Below, piece by piece: positions 19,803-51,059 of a stretch of DNA of 51,059 bases. Position numbers and translations under genes: made by a program. The stretch lies in IMG/VR virus record IMGVR_UViG_3300025816_000004; one strand, 5' to 3'. How positions within the stretch are numbered: position 1 is the stretch's first letter; each line of letters opens with the position of its first letter. The notes below the pieces were generated by a model, which was given only the letters and a program-made list of their open reading frames with translations, was not told the origin of the DNA and searched no databases. This DNA comes from a virus.

Positions 19803-20288
19803 ATGAAATTTGGAATGATAAAAAACTTAATAGGCGCAGTAGCTCCAACAATCGGTACAGCCCTGGGTGGGCCTATGGGCAATATGGCAGCTAATATGAT
19901 TGCTGAAACTTTAGGATGTGAGCCTACACCTAAGAAAATAGAGCAAGCAGTACAAGCAGCCACACCAGAACAACTTGCAGAGATTAAAAAGATTGATGCA
20001 GACTTTGAAGTAAAAATGAAAGAGTTAGATGTAGATCTATATGATCTTCAAACTAAAGACATACAAGATGCAAGAGGGAAATTTTCTAAAGATTGGACAT
20101 CTAGAATCATGGGATTAGTTGTTGTTGGTGGCTTTATGGGTTACATTTTTCTAATTACTCTGCAGCCTCCAGAGCAGAACAGCGAAGCGTTGATCAACTT
20201 AGTGCTAGGTTATCTTGGTGGTCTTGCAAGTGCTATTATATCTTTTTATTTTGGAGCGTCTAATACTGGAAGTAAAGACGATAAGTAA
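19803..20288 (+). CDS. Holin, 3-TM GTA-type holin-like (161 aa)
   Basis: Gly-rich N-terminal amphipathic segment, central helical linker, D-x-x-D-A-R then hydrophobic helices (IMGLVVVGGFMGYIFLI, LVLGYLGGLASAIISFYF); architecture of the 'holin of 3TMs' family. Confidence 0.5.
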   Translation: MKFGMIKNLIGAVAPTIGTALGGPMGNMAANMIAETLGCEPTPKKIEQAVQAATPEQLAEIKKIDADFEVKMKELDVDLYDLQTKDIQDARGKFSKDWTSRIMGLVVVGGFMGYIFLITLQPPEQNSEALINLVLGYLGGLASAIISFYFGASNTGSKDDK

Positions 20289-20638
20289 TGGAAGACATTA
20301 TAAATCTGATTAATCAGGTAGGCTTTCCAGTTGCATCTGCATTAGGTTTAGGTTTCTTTATATGGAAACTTATTAACCGCATTATTGATGGTATGGAAGC
20401 TAAGATAGATGTAGTTGATGAAAAAGTAGATGCTAGTCTTAACGCAATGGAAGAAAGACTAAGCACTAAACTTGATGCTCAATACGGAATAATTGTAGCT
20501 TTAATTGATAGGGTACGCGCACTTGATAATCAAACTATACGTCAAGATGTTTTACTAAAAACATTACTTGGTATTCCTAATTTAATTGAAATAGATAAGG
20601 TGGCAAAAGCAGACCGTGAAGATCAAAGAAAAGATTAA
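20288..20638 (+). CDS. N-terminally membrane-anchored coiled-coil protein (116 aa); i-spanin-like architecture
   Basis: TM helix (FPVASALGLGFFIWKLI) followed by a helical charged region; TAATG coupling to the holin. Confidence 0.5.
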   Translation: MEDIINLINQVGFPVASALGLGFFIWKLINRIIDGMEAKIDVVDEKVDASLNAMEERLSTKLDAQYGIIVALIDRVRALDNQTIRQDVLLKTLLGIPNLIEIDKVAKADREDQRKD

Positions 20639-21071
20639 AATTAACCTAATAGCTTTTTTTATTTGGCAAGGAGATATCTTTGCAGACGAATTGTTATTTA
20701 AATTTAAAAGTCCTAGCTTTTCTGGAGTAAATACTAGCAGTCACTATCTTACAATAGAGAACCAAGAAGCTACAAGAAAGCAAGCTATTAAAGAAGAGAT
20801 AGAAGCATATCAAGATCAGTTAGCTAGAGAAGCAGATAACACTACACTTGCAAGGTTTATAAGAAATTTAGAAAGCAGAATCTACGCACAATTATCTAGG
20901 CAAATGGTAGAACAATTATTTGGTGAGACACCACAAACATCAGGATCACTTGAGCTAGAAGGAAATACTATTGAATACAAAGTTGAAAATGAACTTATCA
21001 CGCTTACTATTACAGACGAAAATGGGGGGCAGACCAGTATTACTGTGCCTATTGGTACTTTTACTTTCTAG
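20616..21071 (+). CDS. csgF: CsgF-like curli assembly protein (151 aa, GTG start, Sec signal peptide)
   Basis: Signal peptide ..LIAFFIWQGDIFA; mature N-terminus ELLFKFKSPSFSG resembles E. coli CsgF TMTFQFRNPNFGG; C-terminal ITLTITDENGGQTSITVP resembles LQLNVTDRKTGQTSTIQV (recalled from memory). Confidence 0.7.
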   Translation: MKIKEKIKINLIAFFIWQGDIFADELLFKFKSPSFSGVNTSSHYLTIENQEATRKQAIKEEIEAYQDQLAREADNTTLARFIRNLESRIYAQLSRQMVEQLFGETPQTSGSLELEGNTIEYKVENELITLTITDENGGQTSITVPIGTFTF

Positions 21072-21831
21072 TTGTGCATCTAAAGATTTATTAAACGGAA
21101 GCGGTATACCTAATGTTGTAATAAAAAGTTCTTCTGTATTAGAACTACAGTCTGAAGAATTAAAACAACTTCCTGCAGCAATACGAAAACCAGTAATAGC
21201 TATATACCCTAATAGCTTTAGAGATCACACAGGACAGCGCAGAAGTAATGGGCAGTTTGCCTTGTTCAGTACTGCAATTACGCAGGCCCCTGAAGCATTT
21301 CTTATCAGAGCTTTAAAACAAGCTGCAAAGGGAAAGTTTTTTCAAGTTGCAGAGCGCGTAGGATTAGATTCACTTACTAAAGAAAGACAACTTATACGTT
21401 CAACAAGAGAAACATTTGAAGAGGACAGCAGCGTCAAACCTCTTTTACTAGCAGGACTCTTGATTCAGGGAGGAGTGTTATCGTATGATTCTAATATAAA
21501 ATCTGGAGGCGCAGGAGCAAGACTGTTAGGTCTAGGAAGTTCTAAACAGTATAGAGAAGATTTAATTACCATATCTTTGAGATTAGTTTCTGTCTCAACA
21601 GGAGAAATATTAATAGAAGTATTAGTATCTAAAACAGTTACATCAGCAGGTCTTTCGCAGGATGTGTTTAGATTTTTAGATGAAGGCAGAAGACTTATTG
21701 AAGTAGAAGGAGGAGTTGCAGAGAACGAAAGTACCTCTATAGCTCTACAACAGGCAATAGAAGAAGGTGTTTTACAAATAATTAAAATAGGAATAACCAG
21801 GGGGTATTGGGAATATGAAGAAATTAATTAG
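21022..21831 (+). CDS. csgG: CsgG-like outer-membrane lipoprotein / curli secretion channel (269 aa)
   Basis: Lipobox LLSS|C. YDSNIKSGGAGARLLGLGSSKQYREDLITISLRLVSVSTGEIL resembles E. coli CsgG YESNVKSGGVGARYFGIGADTQYQLDQIAVNLRVVNVSTGEIL. Also DVFRFLD vs GVFRFID and ITRGYWEY vs IDRGLWDL. Confidence 0.88.
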   Translation: MGGRPVLLCLLVLLLSSCASKDLLNGSGIPNVVIKSSSVLELQSEELKQLPAAIRKPVIAIYPNSFRDHTGQRRSNGQFALFSTAITQAPEAFLIRALKQAAKGKFFQVAERVGLDSLTKERQLIRSTRETFEEDSSVKPLLLAGLLIQGGVLSYDSNIKSGGAGARLLGLGSSKQYREDLITISLRLVSVSTGEILIEVLVSKTVTSAGLSQDVFRFLDEGRRLIEVEGGVAENESTSIALQQAIEEGVLQIIKIGITRGYWEYEEIN

Positions 21832-22522
21832 CTTGTTAATGCTTGTTAGCATTTCCGCAACAGCTTCAGACAACGAAATCTTTGTAGATCAAGTAGGAGC
21901 TACAGCTAATATAGATCTTGAACAGTTAGGTAGTGGTAACATTATAGGTGGTCTTACTGCAGTAGCAGGTTCAATGACAGCCTTGGATCTTGACGGAACA
22001 TCCATGACGTTAGACATAAATCAGATTGGTGATGCTAACAAATTTCTAGGAGATATGTATGCAGATTCATACACAGGTTACTTTAATTTTGATGGCGATA
22101 CTAACACGTTCACATCTAAAATGGATCCAACCAATTCGTTTGGTGCAGATGGTTCAAACGTTAATGTCCAAGTGACAGGTAGTACCAACACCTTTACACT
22201 TGATCTAGCTACTAGTGCTTTAGCAAGTAGCGCAGATATAGATTGGACTGTGCAAGGTTCTAGTAATACTATTAATGCTGACATTGATGTGGATTCAGCT
22301 ACTAATTATATGAATATAGATGGCGATAGTAATACAGTAAATTATGATGGAGATGGTTATGCCCAGGGATATTTTCACCTTACACACACAGGAAGTTCAA
22401 GAGCCTTTGATGTGGATCAACAAAGCACACAAGATTCAGATTGGGTTAAAGTTACTTCTACTGGTTCTAACGGTACAGTTTGCATTAACCAAGACGATCA
22501 AGGCACAAGCGTTGGATGTTAA
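21815..22522 (+). CDS. Secreted curlin-repeat-like protein (235 aa), candidate fibre subunit (CsgA/CsgB analogue)
   Basis: Signal peptide MKKLISLLMLVSISATA|SD; about 8-9 imperfect repeats with a h-x-h-x-(Q/D)-x-G-x-x-N core (VDQVGATAN, EQLGSGN, INQIGDAN, VQVTGSTN, TVQGSSN, NIDGDSN); directly downstream of csgG. Confidence 0.5.
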   Translation: MKKLISLLMLVSISATASDNEIFVDQVGATANIDLEQLGSGNIIGGLTAVAGSMTALDLDGTSMTLDINQIGDANKFLGDMYADSYTGYFNFDGDTNTFTSKMDPTNSFGADGSNVNVQVTGSTNTFTLDLATSALASSADIDWTVQGSSNTINADIDVDSATNYMNIDGDSNTVNYDGDGYAQGYFHLTHTGSSRAFDVDQQSTQDSDWVKVTSTGSNGTVCINQDDQGTSVGC

Positions 22523-23540
22523 TATTGGAAACATTACACAATTAAACGGAAATACCAGAGTAGTAAGAGATAAACCTTATAAGAGCGAGATTGATTTCTC
22601 GCTTAACTCTATGGACAAACTAGAAACTGCACAAGGTAGAATGGGTGTTACGTTTAGAGATGATACAACAATACGTTTAACAGAACACAGCAATGTGATT
22701 ATTGATGAGTTTGTATTTGATGTCAATCCTAGCAAGTCAAGTATGGCTCTTAATTTTGTAAAAGGAACCGGGAGATTTATATCCAGTAAGAAGCCACGCA
22801 TACCTAAAGATAATATTACAATCAGGACACACGCGGCAACCATTGGAATAAGGGGGACAGACTTCACAATAACTGTAAAAGAAACTGGTGAAGCTTTGGT
22901 AATACTTTTGCCTGATGAGTTTGGTAATGCAAGTGGGGAGATAACTGTTGATACGGCCTTAGGTCAGGTAATACTTAACAAAGCTTATGAGGCTACTACA
23001 GTCTATAATTTTGAAACAGCACCTACTCCTGCTGTAGTATTAGACCTAACACTAGATATGATTGACAATATGCTTATTGTAAATCCTCCAGAGACTAAAG
23101 AGATTCAAACAGATGAATCAGTTACTGCTGTAGATAATCTATTAGATGTAGACTTTTTAGAGTTTGATGGACTTGAAGAAGATGCTTTAGCTAAAGATGA
23201 TTTAGAATATACAGAGCTTGATGTAGATTATTTGGCAGGTAACTTTCTAGAAGATCTCTTAGACATTATTCAAGAAGTAGATGAGTTAGGTAAAGCTGAG
23301 AAAGCTTTGTCAGCAGACGGAGTTAAAGGAACAGCAGTAGGTTATGATAAGGATACGCAGATCAGTACCTTTGTTACTGACACAAACTTAAAGTTCTTAA
23401 GAGCTATAGAAGATACACTAGAGATGAGCGTAGACAAATCAGGTTCTTACAATATAAGAATAGAACAAGAAGGAAAAGTAAATCAAATAACTACCAACGG
23501 AGGGAGTAGTTCTACTATTACTATTAAACAAGGAAGTTAA
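22410..23540 (+). CDS. Secreted FecR-domain protein with an acidic C-terminal half (376 aa)
   Basis: NGNTRVVRDKPY..LNSMDKLETAQGRMGVTFRDDTTIRLTEHSNVIIDEF fits the FecR beta-domain pattern. ATG 22410 gives a signal-peptide-like N-terminus (..LLLLVLTVQFALTKTIKAQA|LD). The start is uncertain (alternative TTG near 22514). Confidence 0.55.
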   Translation: MWINKAHKIQIGLKLLLLVLTVQFALTKTIKAQALDVNIGNITQLNGNTRVVRDKPYKSEIDFSLNSMDKLETAQGRMGVTFRDDTTIRLTEHSNVIIDEFVFDVNPSKSSMALNFVKGTGRFISSKKPRIPKDNITIRTHAATIGIRGTDFTITVKETGEALVILLPDEFGNASGEITVDTALGQVILNKAYEATTVYNFETAPTPAVVLDLTLDMIDNMLIVNPPETKEIQTDESVTAVDNLLDVDFLEFDGLEEDALAKDDLEYTELDVDYLAGNFLEDLLDIIQEVDELGKAEKALSADGVKGTAVGYDKDTQISTFVTDTNLKFLRAIEDTLEMSVDKSGSYNIRIEQEGKVNQITTNGGSSSTITIKQGS

Positions 23541-24232
23541 AAATTATAAAAGTTTCTATTTATAGGCACTATATTTTTTTCTTCTAATAAAGGAACAGAT
23601 ATAGATATTCTTTTAGATAAGGGTATAGCAGAATGGCCTATTCCTTTTGGAATGTAAAGCATATCTCCTGCAGTTAATTTAAAAGTTTCTACATCTTTTG
23701 TATTGTTTTCAAAACTATTACAGACTGTCCATTGTACTGAGCCAATGCAATGTACAAGAAAATTATCATCATGATCTATATGTGGGCGAAAAGATTTTCC
23801 TTTAGAGTTTCTACTACAATAAAAATGAGCATCACATGCGCCTTTAAACTCTGTCTCTATAGCTTCTGCTATATCTGAAATACTTTGAGTAAGCATAGAT
23901 GCTTTAGTTAGTATAATAGATCCATTGTTATTCCAAAGAGTATGTAAATATTTTTTATCAAAGTAATCTTTTTTAGCCCATGAAGTTTTAGATCCTTGAT
24001 AAAGATTATTTTTTTCCATACAAAGTTTTTTACCATTGGGTAGTATAGCTTGTATGCCTGCTACTGCTCTATCATTATTAATGTAATCAGAAAGTCTATG
24101 CCAAGAAATAATATTACTGTACATAAATCTTCTAAATCTATTTCCTTTAATAACACAGAATTTTTTATCTTTATATTCTGTTTTAAATTCCTCAACAGAC
24201 ATAGGATCAATTAAACTTTTAAAGTCTATCAC
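23537..24232 (-). CDS. JmjC/cupin-type 2-oxoglutarate-Fe(II) oxygenase (231 aa)
   Basis: H-x-D ... H triad: RPHIDHDDNFLVHCIGSVQW ... DMLYIPKGIGHSAIP. Confidence 0.6.
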   Translation of the reverse strand: MIDFKSLIDPMSVEEFKTEYKDKKFCVIKGNRFRRFMYSNIISWHRLSDYINNDRAVAGIQAILPNGKKLCMEKNNLYQGSKTSWAKKDYFDKKYLHTLWNNNGSIILTKASMLTQSISDIAEAIETEFKGACDAHFYCSRNSKGKSFRPHIDHDDNFLVHCIGSVQWTVCNSFENNTKDVETFKLTAGDMLYIPKGIGHSAIPLSKRISISVPLLEEKNIVPINRNFYNF

Positions 24233-24459
24233 TATGCTTTTCGCCCATTTAAATCCGCTTCTATTTTATTATGTACATTATCTAATTCTCTGGTCGCGCT
24301 TCGCATTGTGGACTGTAACAGGTTAAAATCTTCTTTAGTTAAATGTTTTTTTAATTGTGTAATGTCTGTACTTGTACGTTCAGTAATTAACTGTCCTTGT
24401 TTATTAAACAAAATTGCATACGCTAACAACTTTGCTTCTTCCCTTTTTATTCTTGCCAT
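24232..24459 (-). CDS. Hypothetical protein (75 aa)
   Basis: ORF tightly coupled between RNR and the oxygenase (ATGA/TAATG-type junctions). Confidence 0.7.
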   Translation of the reverse strand: MARIKREEAKLLAYAILFNKQGQLITERTSTDITQLKKHLTKEDFNLLQSTMRSATRELDNVHNKIEADLNGRKA

Positions 24460-26378
24460 TAAATTATCTCACAAGTTCCTGCACTACATGCAAGCTCTTT
24501 AGTATTTTCAGTATTATCTTCTGTCTCATACTCTGTTATCTTAGACCAATCTACTATGTCTGTAGTTTTCTTTAACCATTTTCTATATTCATTATAAGTT
24601 ATCTCTTGATAAGGAGCTTGTTTATATGAATGATCTGAGTAAGGTAAGAAAGAGATACCAGATGTTTCATCTAGATTTTTATAAACCCAAGCTCCTACAT
24701 CTAATTGTTCTTCTTCTTTAACTGAGATTGTTACAGAAGGTTTATGCTCACACCATTTATCTTGATAGTCCTTCCAGATATTTAAGTGTTCAATAGCTGA
24801 TATATCTTTTCTAGTCAGCGCACCTTTAGGACTCTTCATAGGAAAGTAAAAGACATAAGTGTGTTCTGGTTTAGTAAGATCATCTTCATGATAGACTCCT
24901 GCATCTACCATTAATTTTGCTAAAGGATCTTTCTTATCTGCTCTGACGGTGCGAAGGTAGTATGGGCTATGTCTAGTGTGAATACCAGAAGCACTATTGA
25001 CCAGTTGACTTACTGTTCCGCTAGGTTTAACGCAGGTAATTGCTGCGGATTGGGGGATACCTAGTTTCTTAGCCCATACTTTATTAACGGATATTGACAG
25101 ATCTTTTAACTCTTGTAAATCTATCTTGCCATTTATCATATTAACATTGTCCATTATACCTGTAAGTGATACACCAAGCAATGACTCTTCTAAAGTATTG
25201 TGTTTCCATTTACTTGTCAGGTATCTAAAATTTGTTAGCGTAGCCTGGAATGTACCAAGTATAGTCGCTGCTTCTGTTTTAGTTTTTAAAGTATTAATAT
25301 CATCATCTTCTCTAACTACAACCTCAGTAAGATTACAGAATTGTTTATTGCGTAGAATAATTTCACTACAAGGATTACAACCAAAGTCTTTATAGTCTTC
25401 TCGCCTACCATTCTTTGATGCTTGTTTCTCTGCAGCTTGACGATTAAAGATACCACGCTCACCACTTTTAGATTCATACAAAGATAACCATTCACGCATA
25501 AAAGTACCTACGTCTGGTTTTTCTGTATAGGCTACAGAGTTATTAGCTAATGCTCTTTGCTGATTATCTTCCCACCAAGCACCTGACTTAGCATTACGCA
25601 TGCGACTGTCTGAGAGATTGCTAAGAGAGATTAAAGCACTTCGCCTTACTCCACCTACCACTACAACTTCTGCAATCTTACACATCAAATCATGACAGTT
25701 TAATGAATGAAGTTTTCTTTGTTGTTTCTCCATTGCATCTTTAAAAATATTAATAGTAAAATCAAACAACTCTTCAAGAGGATCTGGGCCACTTGCTCTG
25801 CCTCCAAAAGTTTTAAGTCTAGCACCATAAGGTCTAATGTTTGAAACATCCCATGTAGGAATCTGTCCTGCATATAGTAAAGACATAAGTTCTTTGTAGG
25901 ACTTTGCCCATCCAATCTTAGAATCAGCTACTTTAATAACAGTATCTGTAGGAAATAAATCCTCTGGTAAATCTGGTAATTGATTTATGTATTGACGTTC
26001 AACGCTAAACCCTACCCCTGTACCACACATAAGTATGTATAATGTTTCATCAAAAGCTCTAGGTGTATCAACAGCTACATAGCTACAGTTAAATCCTGCT
26101 ACGTTATCTTTTTCTAAAGCATTACCTGCTGACATCAATGCTCTCATACTTGGCATAACATCTAATGACAACACAGCTTTTTGTAATGTAGATCTAATTA
26201 CAGCATAGTCAACTTTATTTAATTTAGTATTTTGTACTATTTGTTTTCCAAAAAAATCAAAGTATCTTGTTACAGTTTCTTCCCAAGTTTCTCTACGTTG
26301 ATGTTCTTCATTCCATCTAGCATATCTGCTTAGATGTATAAACTGTTGATAGTTAGTAGGTAGTTCAGTAGTGTTCAT
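24459..26378 (-). CDS. nrdJ: Class II (adenosylcobalamin-dependent) ribonucleotide reductase (639 aa)
   Basis: NCSYVAVDTPRAFDETLYILMCGTGVGFSVE; active-site GCNPCSEIILRNKQFCNLTEV; C-terminal redox pair CSAGTCEII. Confidence 0.85.
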   Translation of the reverse strand: MNTTELPTNYQQFIHLSRYARWNEEHQRRETWEETVTRYFDFFGKQIVQNTKLNKVDYAVIRSTLQKAVLSLDVMPSMRALMSAGNALEKDNVAGFNCSYVAVDTPRAFDETLYILMCGTGVGFSVERQYINQLPDLPEDLFPTDTVIKVADSKIGWAKSYKELMSLLYAGQIPTWDVSNIRPYGARLKTFGGRASGPDPLEELFDFTINIFKDAMEKQQRKLHSLNCHDLMCKIAEVVVVGGVRRSALISLSNLSDSRMRNAKSGAWWEDNQQRALANNSVAYTEKPDVGTFMREWLSLYESKSGERGIFNRQAAEKQASKNGRREDYKDFGCNPCSEIILRNKQFCNLTEVVVREDDDINTLKTKTEAATILGTFQATLTNFRYLTSKWKHNTLEESLLGVSLTGIMDNVNMINGKIDLQELKDLSISVNKVWAKKLGIPQSAAITCVKPSGTVSQLVNSASGIHTRHSPYYLRTVRADKKDPLAKLMVDAGVYHEDDLTKPEHTYVFYFPMKSPKGALTRKDISAIEHLNIWKDYQDKWCEHKPSVTISVKEEEQLDVGAWVYKNLDETSGISFLPYSDHSYKQAPYQEITYNEYRKWLKKTTDIVDWSKITEYETEDNTENTKELACSAGTCEII

Positions 26379-26818
26379 TTGTATTCCTTTCCAATTTCAT
26401 TGTAATATAATTTTTTAAAGTTAATATCTTGTATTAAAGAAACAGGTAAAGAAGTTAACCCTGTGATTGTAGAAACATATTGTCTTGCATAAGGAAATAT
26501 TATGTTAGGACAATCTACAGCCAATGCTTCATCTATTTCTTCTTGCTTTGTATAATTTTTAAGACTAAAAAATCCTGAGTAAATAAAGTTTAATATGTAT
26601 AAAATTTTATTGTATGTTTTATCTTTAGCTATAAGTTCTAAAGCTAAAGTTATTTCATAGTTATCTTCATTGTTAATTTCAAAAGAAGAAAAAGAAGATG
26701 TACAATTCAATTCAGTAACTACTTCATTAGAAGTATTAAAAAAAATGTCAGGACTCTCTGGTATTTCAAGACTGCTTTCTTTTAAAAAAATTGCTTTTAT
26801 ATTTATCTCATTACTCAT
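26375..26818 (-). CDS. secB: SecB-like protein-export chaperone (147 aa)
   Basis: [23 protein letters not shown] vs E. coli SecB [61 protein letters not shown] vs [38 protein letters not shown] (recalled). Confidence 0.8.
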   Translation of the reverse strand: [147 protein letters not shown]

Positions 26819-50343: not shown

Positions 50344-51059
50344 TGGCTACAACATATTTAACACTTACTAACGAAGTTCTTAGAGAATTAAATGAAGTAC
50401 AATTAACTTCTGCAAATTTTTCAAGTTCTGTAGGAATACAAGCTTTTGTAAGAGAAGCAATTAATAGAGCGTTAAATGACATAGCTAATGAAGAACCTCA
50501 ATTACCTTTCTTTGCTGCCGCAGCTAGCGGAGAAACAGATCCTTTTTACGGTAATGTAACTGTAGCAACCGTAGCAGGAACAAGATGGTACACACTTAAA
50601 GCAGGAAGCTCTAGTATAACTACTGATTATTCTTCTATAGATTGGGATGATTTTTATATTACAACAATTAGTGTATCAGGAGAATCCGCACCCTATGTAT
50701 CTAAAGGTTTAAGATTTATATCTTTAACAGATTGGAGAAGATATTTAAGAGATCAAGAAAACGCAGATGATGCAGATACTCAGAATCATGGAGAGCCTCA
50801 GTTTGTTATTCGTAGTCCAGACCATAGAAAATTTGGTCTTAGTCCTATCCCAGACAAAGTATACAATGTTCATTTCTATGCTTACTCTGCACCTACAGAA
50901 CTTTCTGCTCATGGAGATACTATAGTCTTTCCAGATCAATATGCTTCTGTAATCATGGCTAGAACAAGATACTACGTTCATCAGTTTAAAGAAAACTTAC
51001 AACAAGCAGCTTTTGCATTAGATGATTATAAGAAAGGTATGAAACGTATGAAATCTAAT
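50343..51059 (+). CDS. 5' part of the junction-spanning 255-aa virion protein (continues at 128..178 after removing the duplicated 127 nt)
   Basis: ATG 50343; open to the end of the window; in frame with 2..178. Confidence 0.6.
   Translation, partial: MATTYLTLTNEVLRELNEVQLTSANFSSSVGIQAFVREAINRALNDIANEEPQLPFFAAAASGETDPFYGNVTVATVAGTRWYTLKAGSSSITTDYSSIDWDDFYITTISVSGESAPYVSKGLRFISLTDWRRYLRDQENADDADTQNHGEPQFVIRSPDHRKFGLSPIPDKVYNVHFYAYSAPTELSAHGDTIVFPDQYASVIMARTRYYVHQFKENLQQAAFALDDYKKGMKRMKSN
50933..51059. repeat. Terminal direct repeat, copy 2 (identical to 1..127)
   Basis: Same 127-nt string as the window start. Confidence 0.95.

Follow-up and report, generated by a model that had tools for sequence, protein, structure and literature searches.

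The first type VIII (curli) secretion system (T8SS) recognized in a phage was a gene cluster of pelagimyophages, for which a role in "sibling capture" was proposed (Zaragoza-Solas 2020, PMC7029224). The CsgG-CsgF complex of phage Melnitz was then modelled, and a pinholin- or secretin-like role in the timing of lysis was proposed (Buchholz 2022, PMC9004378). CsgF, CsgG, CsgA/B and FecR genes were also found in nine HTVC023P-type podoviruses, with a "histidine kinase" gene before the cassette and often an adenylate cyclase gene after it; the same study detected T8SS genes in metatranscriptomes and at each of the 65 GOV2.0 stations, and argued that the module had passed as a whole from one phage family to another (Wittmers 2022, PMC9599517). 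Here we describe a cassette of this kind at positions 20616-23540 of the IMG/VR virus record IMGVR_UViG_3300025816_000004. This stretch of 51,059 nucleotides is called the window below. The cassette encodes homologues of CsgF and CsgG, a secreted repeat protein and a FecR-domain protein.

In the Pelagibacter myophage HTVC008M (KC465899) and in four isolates of the Methylophilales phage Melnitz (MZ577097), annotated cassettes are matched by the window CsgG and FecR proteins in tblastn searches. Their gene order is CsgF, CsgG, a curlin-associated protein, a FecR-domain or hypothetical protein, a second curlin-repeat protein and adenylate cyclase, and the window proteins are 33-46% identical to their counterparts there (E 1e-8 to 1e-74). 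Judged by gene order and orthology, the window cassette is the already described pelagiphage T8SS, here in a further lineage. An earlier reading of the window (the original prediction) had proposed a curli-like phage module, which both the profile matches given below and the orthology to annotated phage cassettes support. That reading could not tell whether such a phage-borne set was known; it is described in the three papers cited above, and the roles then proposed for it (aggregation, superinfection exclusion, an outer membrane pore) are hypotheses already in the literature. New here are the HTVC103P-type carrier, which is a third phage lineage, and several corrections of detail. Neither HTVC103P nor HMO-2011 is mentioned in Wittmers 2022 (PMC9599517), and no link between curli and HMO-2011-type phages was found among the papers searched.

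The CsgF and CsgG homologues

The CsgF protein matches the Pfam profile PF10614 with 67.1 bits (E 2.3e-18; cut-off 25.8). The match spans the whole profile, the C-terminal part included (positions 17-132 of 132). The protein also belongs with phrog_35372 (E 1.6e-41) and is 45-46% identical to the CsgF proteins of HTVC008M and Melnitz. Its N-terminus is basic and hydrophobic, resembles a signal peptide, and is followed by LLFKFKSPSFSG. The stretch LFKFKSPSFSG represents the F-x-F-x-x-P-x-F-x-G channel-insertion motif; the corresponding sequence of E. coli CsgF is TFQFRNPNFGG.

The CsgG protein matches PF03783 with 155.3 bits (E 1.8e-45; cut-off 20.8). It is colinear with the E. coli CsgG structures 3x2r and 6l7a over residues 8-266 (E 2e-42) and 43% identical to the CsgG of HTVC008M. 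The alignment with the E. coli structures shows that the residues of the constriction loop, Y51, N55 and F56 in E. coli CsgG, differ in the window protein. Translation from the ATG at 21022 gives MGGRPVLLCLLVLLLSSC with the lipobox L-S-S-C, and the same 269-residue form has been called by independent gene callers in other assemblies. The start codon is most likely this ATG and not the TTG at 20971. These profiles and alignments show that the two proteins are true homologues of the curli outer membrane channel CsgG and of its cap or adaptor CsgF. The channel-plug motif that had been read in CsgF, and the lipobox and colinearity with the E. coli protein that had been read in CsgG, are all found; the signal peptide that had been read in CsgF corresponds to its signal-peptide-like N-terminus.

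The ratios of nonsynonymous to synonymous substitution rates (dN/dS) relative to related viruses are 0.10-0.26 for all cassette genes (~0.13 for csgF, ~0.15 for csgG, ~0.12 for the repeat gene and ~0.11 for the FecR gene), with dS saturated and the values rough. They indicate that all cassette genes are under purifying selection.

The repeat protein

The protein encoded after CsgG begins with a clean signal peptide, as read from the sequence, which ends in SATA and is followed by SD. The chain is rich in Asp, Thr, Ser, Gly and Asn, has an isoelectric point of about 4, and contains seven motifs of the [QD]-x-G-x-x-N type and many DGD(S/T)N motifs. The curlin repeat (PF07012) follows the pattern S-x5-Q-x-G-x-x-N-x-A-x3-Q. 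The repeat protein is orthologous to the "CsgB-like" protein of HTVC008M (1.4e-23) and to the "curlin associated repeat protein" of Melnitz (2.9e-14), and the Melnitz orthologue itself exceeds the Pfam Curlin_rpt cut-off, with 26 bits. Across 38 members of the family, which comprises 3,051 clusters at 90% identity, the invariant residues are mostly G, N, Q and D in a repeating spacing, forming a ladder. The AlphaFold2 model is all-beta (predicted local distance difference test (pLDDT) 83, predicted template modelling score (pTM) 0.80) and consists of about 8 strand-turn-strand units of ~22 residues each, which is the period of the curlin repeat.

The best E-value of the 38 members against Curlin_rpt is 0.019, the window protein falls short of significance against the NCBIfam CsgA family (E 0.01), and a hidden Markov model (HMM) of the family compared with PDB sequences yields only spurious antibody matches. 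The curlin assignment is made because of the orthologue and the predicted fold, and not because of a significant Pfam match. "Curlin-like beta-solenoid subunit" is a reasonable description, and the protein is presumed to be a curlin-like fibre subunit; the label "CsgA/B" goes beyond the evidence. Of the original description as a signal-peptide protein made of curlin-like repeats, the signal peptide and the motifs hold, and the curlin label is left without a significant profile match.

The FecR-domain protein

The last protein of the cassette matches PF04773 (E 7e-11) with a beta-domain at about residues 70-165, counted from the ATG at 22410, and belongs with phrog_37870 (E 5e-66). As for the repeat protein, its relatives form >3,000 clusters at 90% identity. 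It is 36-39% identical over its full length to the FecR proteins of HTVC008M and Melnitz. The C-terminal half is acidic (37 Asp and Glu against 12 Lys and Arg).

Two starts are possible. The ATG at 22410 gives a protein of 376 residues with a typical signal peptide that ends in AQA and is followed by L. The TTG at 22512 gives 342 residues without a signal peptide; it is the start chosen by the gene callers in four contigs with the identical repeat protein, and relatives in the protein database are called at 342-361 residues. The HTVC008M and Melnitz orthologues have clear signal peptides directly before the conserved domain, and for this reason the ATG at 22410 is favoured, with export less than certain. 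The acidic C-terminal half and the FecR domain of the original prediction are thus both present, and the signal-peptide-like N-terminus is ambiguous between the two starts. The putative signal peptide lies wholly within the last 37 codons of the repeat gene, in another frame (22410-22522, + strand). In many relatives the FecR frame stays open well upstream, and the hydrophobic core that it encodes is weak in some of them. The corresponding overlap of the repeat and FecR genes in the myophages is absent from HTVC008M and 23 nt long in Melnitz.

A classical FecR anti-sigma factor has a transmembrane segment and works together with an extracytoplasmic function (ECF) sigma factor and a TonB-dependent transducer. 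What these regulators share with the window protein is the periplasmic beta-domain PF04773, the sole match in the latter; the cytoplasmic anti-sigma domain and the C-terminal DUF4974 of the regulators are undetected. The acidic C-terminal half, in turn, is peculiar to the window protein, which has no more than a signal peptide at its N-terminus. With neither the anti-sigma domain nor DUF4974 detected, the protein was rejected as a classical anti-sigma factor. The NCBIfam matches show that it resembles the secreted FecR-domain proteins Lsa33 and LipL45 of Leptospira. The AlphaFold2 model is poor (pLDDT 47) and unusable for a fold search, and an HMM of the family has no match in the PDB.

Phage origin and lineage of the genome

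Positions 1-127 of the window are identical to positions 50933-51059. Circularly assembled contigs usually show their overlap as an exact direct terminal repeat of this kind, here of 127 bp, and the unique length of the genome is 50,932 bp. The genome encodes a terminase, a portal, a major capsid protein, a T7-like DNA polymerase, a primase-helicase and an internal virion protein of 1,647 residues with a lysozyme domain (phrog_7348, phrog_26675); no tRNA genes were found in it. The closest proteins are those of the Pelagibacter phages HTVC103P, HTVC104P and HTVC115P (portal 61%, capsid 60% and DNA polymerase 50% identical), and HMO-2011-type phages come next. A comparison with the first 50 kb of HTVC023P gives a single match, to the DNA polymerase, with 24% identity. 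These similarities place the window among the HTVC103P-type podoviruses, as an uncultured member. A megablast search of positions 18-26 kb against 50,697 phage records finds no nucleotide relative, and there is therefore no close cultured relative. The host is probably SAR11, as judged from the hosts of the related phages.

That the cassette is host DNA, or was joined to the phage genome by a chimeric metagenome assembly, is effectively excluded. Besides the end overlap, the GC content (~34% G+C) and the strand skew run smoothly through the cassette region, and both cassette junctions recur in dozens of IMG/VR contigs. The exact 235-residue repeat protein is found on 15 independent contigs from at least 4 different samples; in the four contigs whose neighbouring genes were inspected, each from a different JGI or ENA sample and one of them 51,147 bp long, the same neighbours stand on both sides. 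The only hint of host DNA comes from a comparison with one genome per bacterial species, in which the best CsgG match (49%) lies on a contig binned into a Pelagibacter metagenome-assembled genome. This contig is phage-like, however, and itself bears the full viral cassette together with a myophage-type cyclase gene. The 79 genuinely bacterial csgG loci retrieved encode proteins at most 43% identical to the window CsgG, and none of the 79 has a FecR or a small membrane-protein gene within 8 kb. No bacterial donor was identified among them. The view that the genome is a closed phage genome and the cassette not adjacent host DNA, already taken in the original prediction, is thus borne out by the end overlap and by the junctions reproduced in many independent assemblies.

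Distribution of the cassette in related viruses

When IMG/VR was scanned with an alignment of CsgG, relatives were found on 427 viral contigs. The arrangement of the locus was scored in the best 80 of these (64-91% identity), for genes that lie within the retrieved DNA. Every cassette gene retrieved at these 80 loci stands in the order small membrane protein(s), CsgF, CsgG, repeat protein, FecR, and the repeat gene is present at every locus whose retrieved DNA runs past CsgG. The co-occurrence that the original prediction had suggested looking for in IMG/VR is therefore found, with the gene order preserved. A cyclase gene directly follows FecR in about 20 of the 80. The slot of the cassette is the same as in the window in most of them; a few have the gene of a 161-residue membrane protein, w161, after FecR instead.

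Relatives of w161 occur on >590 IMG/VR contigs. The loci sampled with w161 comprise 39 with the T8SS, 13 without it and 28 that are not scorable. The T8SS is thus present in about 75% of the scorable close relatives, and the cassette is accessory. HTVC115P, HTVC103P and HTVC104P have no tblastn match to the window CsgG. In HTVC115P the corresponding slot, bounded by the gene of the large internal virion protein and by the convergent genes of ribonucleotide reductase, holds an Hsp20 gene and four small genes, and no T8SS. In another contig (IMGVR_UViG_3300030376_000575, 65 kb), the capsid protein is 93% identical to that of the window and its gene lies ~8.5 kb upstream of the cassette, compared with ~22 kb in the window; there, either the cassette or the structural arm differs from the window in its arrangement.

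Gene layout and neighbouring genes

The coordinates of the cassette genes and of the preceding membrane-protein genes are given in Table 1. As originally predicted, the four genes from csgF to the FecR gene are consecutive, on one strand and tightly packed. The gene of the 116-residue protein overlaps csgF by 23 nt, csgF overlaps csgG by 50 nt, and csgG overlaps the repeat gene by 17 nt. The overlap of the repeat and FecR genes is 113 nt or 11 nt, according to the FecR start chosen, and the stop codons of the FecR gene and of the convergent JmjC gene overlap by 4 nt. A scan for sigma-70 promoters and terminators finds fewer sites than in shuffled sequence, so that there is no evidence of a separate transcription unit. 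The late (structural and lysis) operon ends with the cassette. No open reading frame between 19532 and 24232 has a Pfam or NCBIfam match to CsgE, CsgC/H or CsgD, in agreement with the earlier reading, and PADLOC finds no defence-system match among the cassette proteins.

Table 1. Genes of the T8SS cassette and the membrane-protein genes that precede it in the window
Feature	Coordinates	Strand	Basis and remarks
w161, 161-aa membrane protein (context, outside the cassette)	19803..20288	+	phrog_1544, E 9e-25
Small bitopic membrane protein, 116 aa	20288..20638	+	homology to proteins upstream of csgF in HTVC008M and Melnitz
CsgF homologue, 151 aa, GTG start	20616..21071	+	PF10614
CsgG lipoprotein homologue, 269 aa	21022..21831	+	PF03783; reading frame open from TTG 20971
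Secreted acidic repeat protein, 235 aa	21815..22522	+	signal peptide, motifs, orthology, AlphaFold2 model
FecR-domain protein, 376 or 342 aa	22410..23540	+	PF04773; reading frame open from 22344

In the 116-residue protein a transmembrane segment lies at the N-terminus, a coiled coil is predicted, and the motif AL(I/D)DR(V/I)RxLDN is conserved. The positive residues after the transmembrane segment suggest that its N-terminus is outside and its C-terminus inside. Immediately before csgF, HTVC008M and Melnitz encode one or two small proteins homologous to it (blastp 1e-8 to 1e-12), and this gene family precedes csgF in three phage lineages. Of 44 close IMG/VR relatives, 38 have the gene before csgF, as do 19 of 30 myophage-like contigs; the others lack csgF and csgG, and their copy of the gene directly adjoins a w161-like gene or an inverted cyclase gene. 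Since 6 close and 11 distant relatives carry the gene but not csgF or csgG, it was not accepted as a gene found only with the T8SS cassette. It is a strong but non-exclusive neighbour of csgF and may belong to the lysis cluster. It is probably also the "histidine kinase" gene of Wittmers 2022 (PMC9599517). This label was rejected: Pfam and NCBIfam detect neither HisKA nor HATPase_c in the 116-residue protein or in its HTVC008M and Melnitz homologues, and the family alignment contains no invariant His. The gene had been taken for a holin flanking the cassette in the original prediction. What is found is a conserved family of small membrane proteins before csgF, with no Pfam holin match and only a weak match to the "holin" family phrog_4898 (E 0.005 over 18 residues).

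The w161 protein has two C-terminal hydrophobic segments, with a Kyte-Doolittle maximum of 2.28 at residue 102, and its PHROG family has no assigned function. It is a candidate for the holin of the lineage. In relatives its gene stands on one side of the cassette or the other, and where the T8SS is lacking it comes directly after the gene resembling that of the 116-residue protein; it thus marks the slot at the end of the late operon in which the cassette sits. Nine myophage-like contigs have the pair of membrane-protein genes followed directly by an inverted CHASE2-type cyclase gene, without csgF and csgG. This shows the cassette to be modular: its membrane proteins and cyclase can be kept where the secretion genes are missing.

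Beyond the cassette, genes on the opposite strand converge on it. The nearest (23537-24232, - strand) encodes a JmjC/cupin-fold protein (PF08007, E 3e-11; phrog_8014); since its stop codon and that of the FecR gene overlap by 4 nt, the late and early arms are not separated by any intergenic space that could hold a terminator. Further from the cassette lies a ribonucleotide reductase gene (24459-26378, - strand) of the single-chain, B12-dependent class II type (PF21995 insertion domain). The reductase has no detectable similarity to the products of the class I alpha and beta genes at the same position in HTVC115P; the reductase module has therefore been replaced in this arm.

Directly upstream of the reductase gene and 3 kb from the cassette lies the gene of a homologue of the export chaperone SecB (26375-26818, - strand; PF02556, E 1e-26, 94 bits). 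It has no real counterpart in the phage collection, where the matches are only ~25% identical and several are to bacterial records or unannotated fragments, and no link between SecB and pelagiphages was found among the papers searched. The T8SS is present in 7 of 8 scorable SecB-carrying contigs of IMG/VR, in which SecB occupies at least two different genomic positions. A linkage between SecB and the T8SS was not accepted, as it is inseparable from shared ancestry when about 75% of the close relatives have the T8SS already.

Possible function of the cassette

By combining these observations with the published work, it is possible to outline how the cassette might act. On balance, the sequences lead us to lean towards the late-expressed, CsgG-CsgF-dependent secretion of a curlin-like fibre subunit. 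The cassette would be transcribed late together with the virion genes, as suggested by the tight overlaps and by the lack of promoter and terminator signals. Its products would cross the inner membrane via the host Sec system. CsgG would be lipidated and would form an oligomeric pore in the outer membrane, into which the N-terminal FxFxxPxFxG segment of CsgF would insert. The acidic repeat protein would then be threaded out unfolded, to fold or polymerise on the surface as a curli-like beta-solenoid fibre or coat. The FecR protein might be a phage-specific periplasmic accessory, either an adaptor that replaces CsgE or, in relatives, a sensor partner of the CHASE2 cyclase. The phage could benefit from the remodelled surface of the dying cell by aggregation ("sibling capture"), by an adsorption decoy or by superinfection exclusion.

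Several observations weigh against this description. The match of the repeat protein to Curlin_rpt is not significant (E 1.1, 9.7 bits; cut-off 20.7), nor is an hhalign comparison of its family with E. coli CsgA. A Foldseek search of the PDB with its model gives nothing below E 0.19, and generic beta-helix proteins only, so that there is no structural proof of a CsgA-like fold. The protein is very acidic and rich in Asp, Thr and Ser, whereas E. coli CsgA is rich in Gln, Asn and Gly, and it has no glycine-rich targeting segment like N22. CsgE is absent from the cassette, and the export of FecR is uncertain because the gene callers start past the putative signal peptide. The case for late co-transcription consists of the gene overlaps and the missing promoter and terminator signals. 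Cells infected with Melnitz were not seen to clump (Buchholz 2022, PMC9004378), and no experimental report on any phage T8SS was found in the literature.

The absence of clumping is also what might be expected if CsgG and CsgF acted in lysis rather than in secretion. According to the idea of Buchholz 2022 (PMC9004378), they would form a gated outer membrane pore or a pinholin-like element that times lysis, here with the repeat and FecR proteins in gating or regulatory roles. The position of the cassette agrees with this: it lies in the lysis neighbourhood, after the internal virion protein with the lysozyme domain and the candidate holin w161, and it is always preceded by a small single-pass protein with a weak holin match, whose gene adjoins w161 where the T8SS is missing. 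Elsewhere w161 follows FecR, so that the cassette is embedded between two membrane-protein genes, and CsgE, the periplasmic gate, is absent. The cassette is accessory, however, with no CsgG match in HTVC115P, HTVC103P or HTVC104P and with about a quarter of the close relatives lacking it; being dispensable in the lineage, it cannot be essential lysis machinery. The CsgG channel is ~1 nm wide, and an outer membrane channel of this size does not breach the membrane. A bare pore, moreover, needs neither the secreted repeat protein nor a full-length CsgF, and both are strictly conserved and under purifying selection. A lysis-timing role is thus unlikely.

The missing CsgE bears on a further possibility, since a CsgG channel without it could be open in both directions, as was argued in Wittmers 2022 (PMC9599517). 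Such an ungated channel might admit nutrients, cofactors or iron complexes, while FecR, with the CHASE2 cyclase, would sense an envelope signal and alter the host through cyclic AMP. The cyclase gene directly after FecR in about a quarter of the 80 relatives fits this scheme, as do the CHASE2 sensor domain of the HTVC008M cyclase and the myophage-like contigs that have the small membrane proteins and the cyclase but neither CsgF nor CsgG, which suggest a separable signalling unit. The window itself, on the other hand, has no cyclase gene, and its FecR protein has neither the cytoplasmic anti-sigma domain nor DUF4974. Pfam and NCBIfam find no transporter or TonB-dependent receptor in the cassette or among its immediate neighbours, and the conserved secreted repeat protein and CsgF are left unexplained. 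Uptake or sensing is accordingly very improbable as the function of the cassette.

The secretion of a curlin-like subunit, which we prefer, might also be part of a wider envelope programme timed by the phage. The lysis-cluster membrane protein or proteins, CsgG-CsgF, a FecR adaptor in place of CsgE and, in some genomes, SecB would then export an acidic beta-solenoid coat, different from Q/N-rich curli, before lysis. This extended scheme is speculative and, on the sequences, quite unlikely. If it were true, the T8SS would have been rewired in a way specific to viruses, with a chaperone of its own and a link to the timing of lysis.

Comparison with known systems

In bacterial curli, as encoded by E. 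coli csgBAC-csgDEFG and by the alphaproteobacterial variants, the CsgG lipoprotein and CsgF with its N-terminal motif are homologous to the window proteins, and in both systems the subunit is built of repeats and has a Sec-type signal. The window differs from this system by the lack of CsgE, CsgC/H and CsgD and by a subunit rich in Asp, Thr and Ser that misses the Curlin_rpt cut-off.

The phage cassettes are closer. CsgE, CsgC and CsgD are likewise absent from those published (PMC9599517), and the HTVC008M and Melnitz cassettes share the gene order and orthologous proteins with the window. These two phages are T4-like myophages of ~140 kb (Kyanoviridae), in which the cassette lies in a hypervariable region after the gene of the single-stranded DNA-binding protein and has a pair of small membrane-protein genes and, in addition, a second curlin-repeat gene and a gene for a CHASE2 adenylate cyclase. 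The window, in contrast, is a podovirus genome of 51 kb with a single small membrane-protein gene, and it lacks both the second repeat gene and the cyclase gene.

The HTVC023P-type phages also carry the cassette in a podovirus genome, in the order "HK"-CsgF-CsgG-CsgA/B-FecR, with or without the second repeat gene and the cyclase gene. Their T8SS-carrying genomes are 62-65 kb long and the group has a mean of 42% G+C (Wittmers 2022, PMC9599517). The cassette takes up 7.8 ± 1.6% of these genomes and a similar share, 6.4%, of the window. The genomes are otherwise different, with 51 kb and ~34% G+C in the window and the 24%-identical DNA polymerase as the sole match in the part compared.

The HTVC103P-type podoviruses, which are abundant, are thus a third group of phages with the T8SS, which in them holds a fixed slot beside putative lysis genes. 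The known hosts, SAR11 and OM43, have no curli system of their own, and the phage curli genes are abundant worldwide. The presence of the cassette in this lineage strengthens the published case for the transfer of the module between unrelated phages that share hosts.

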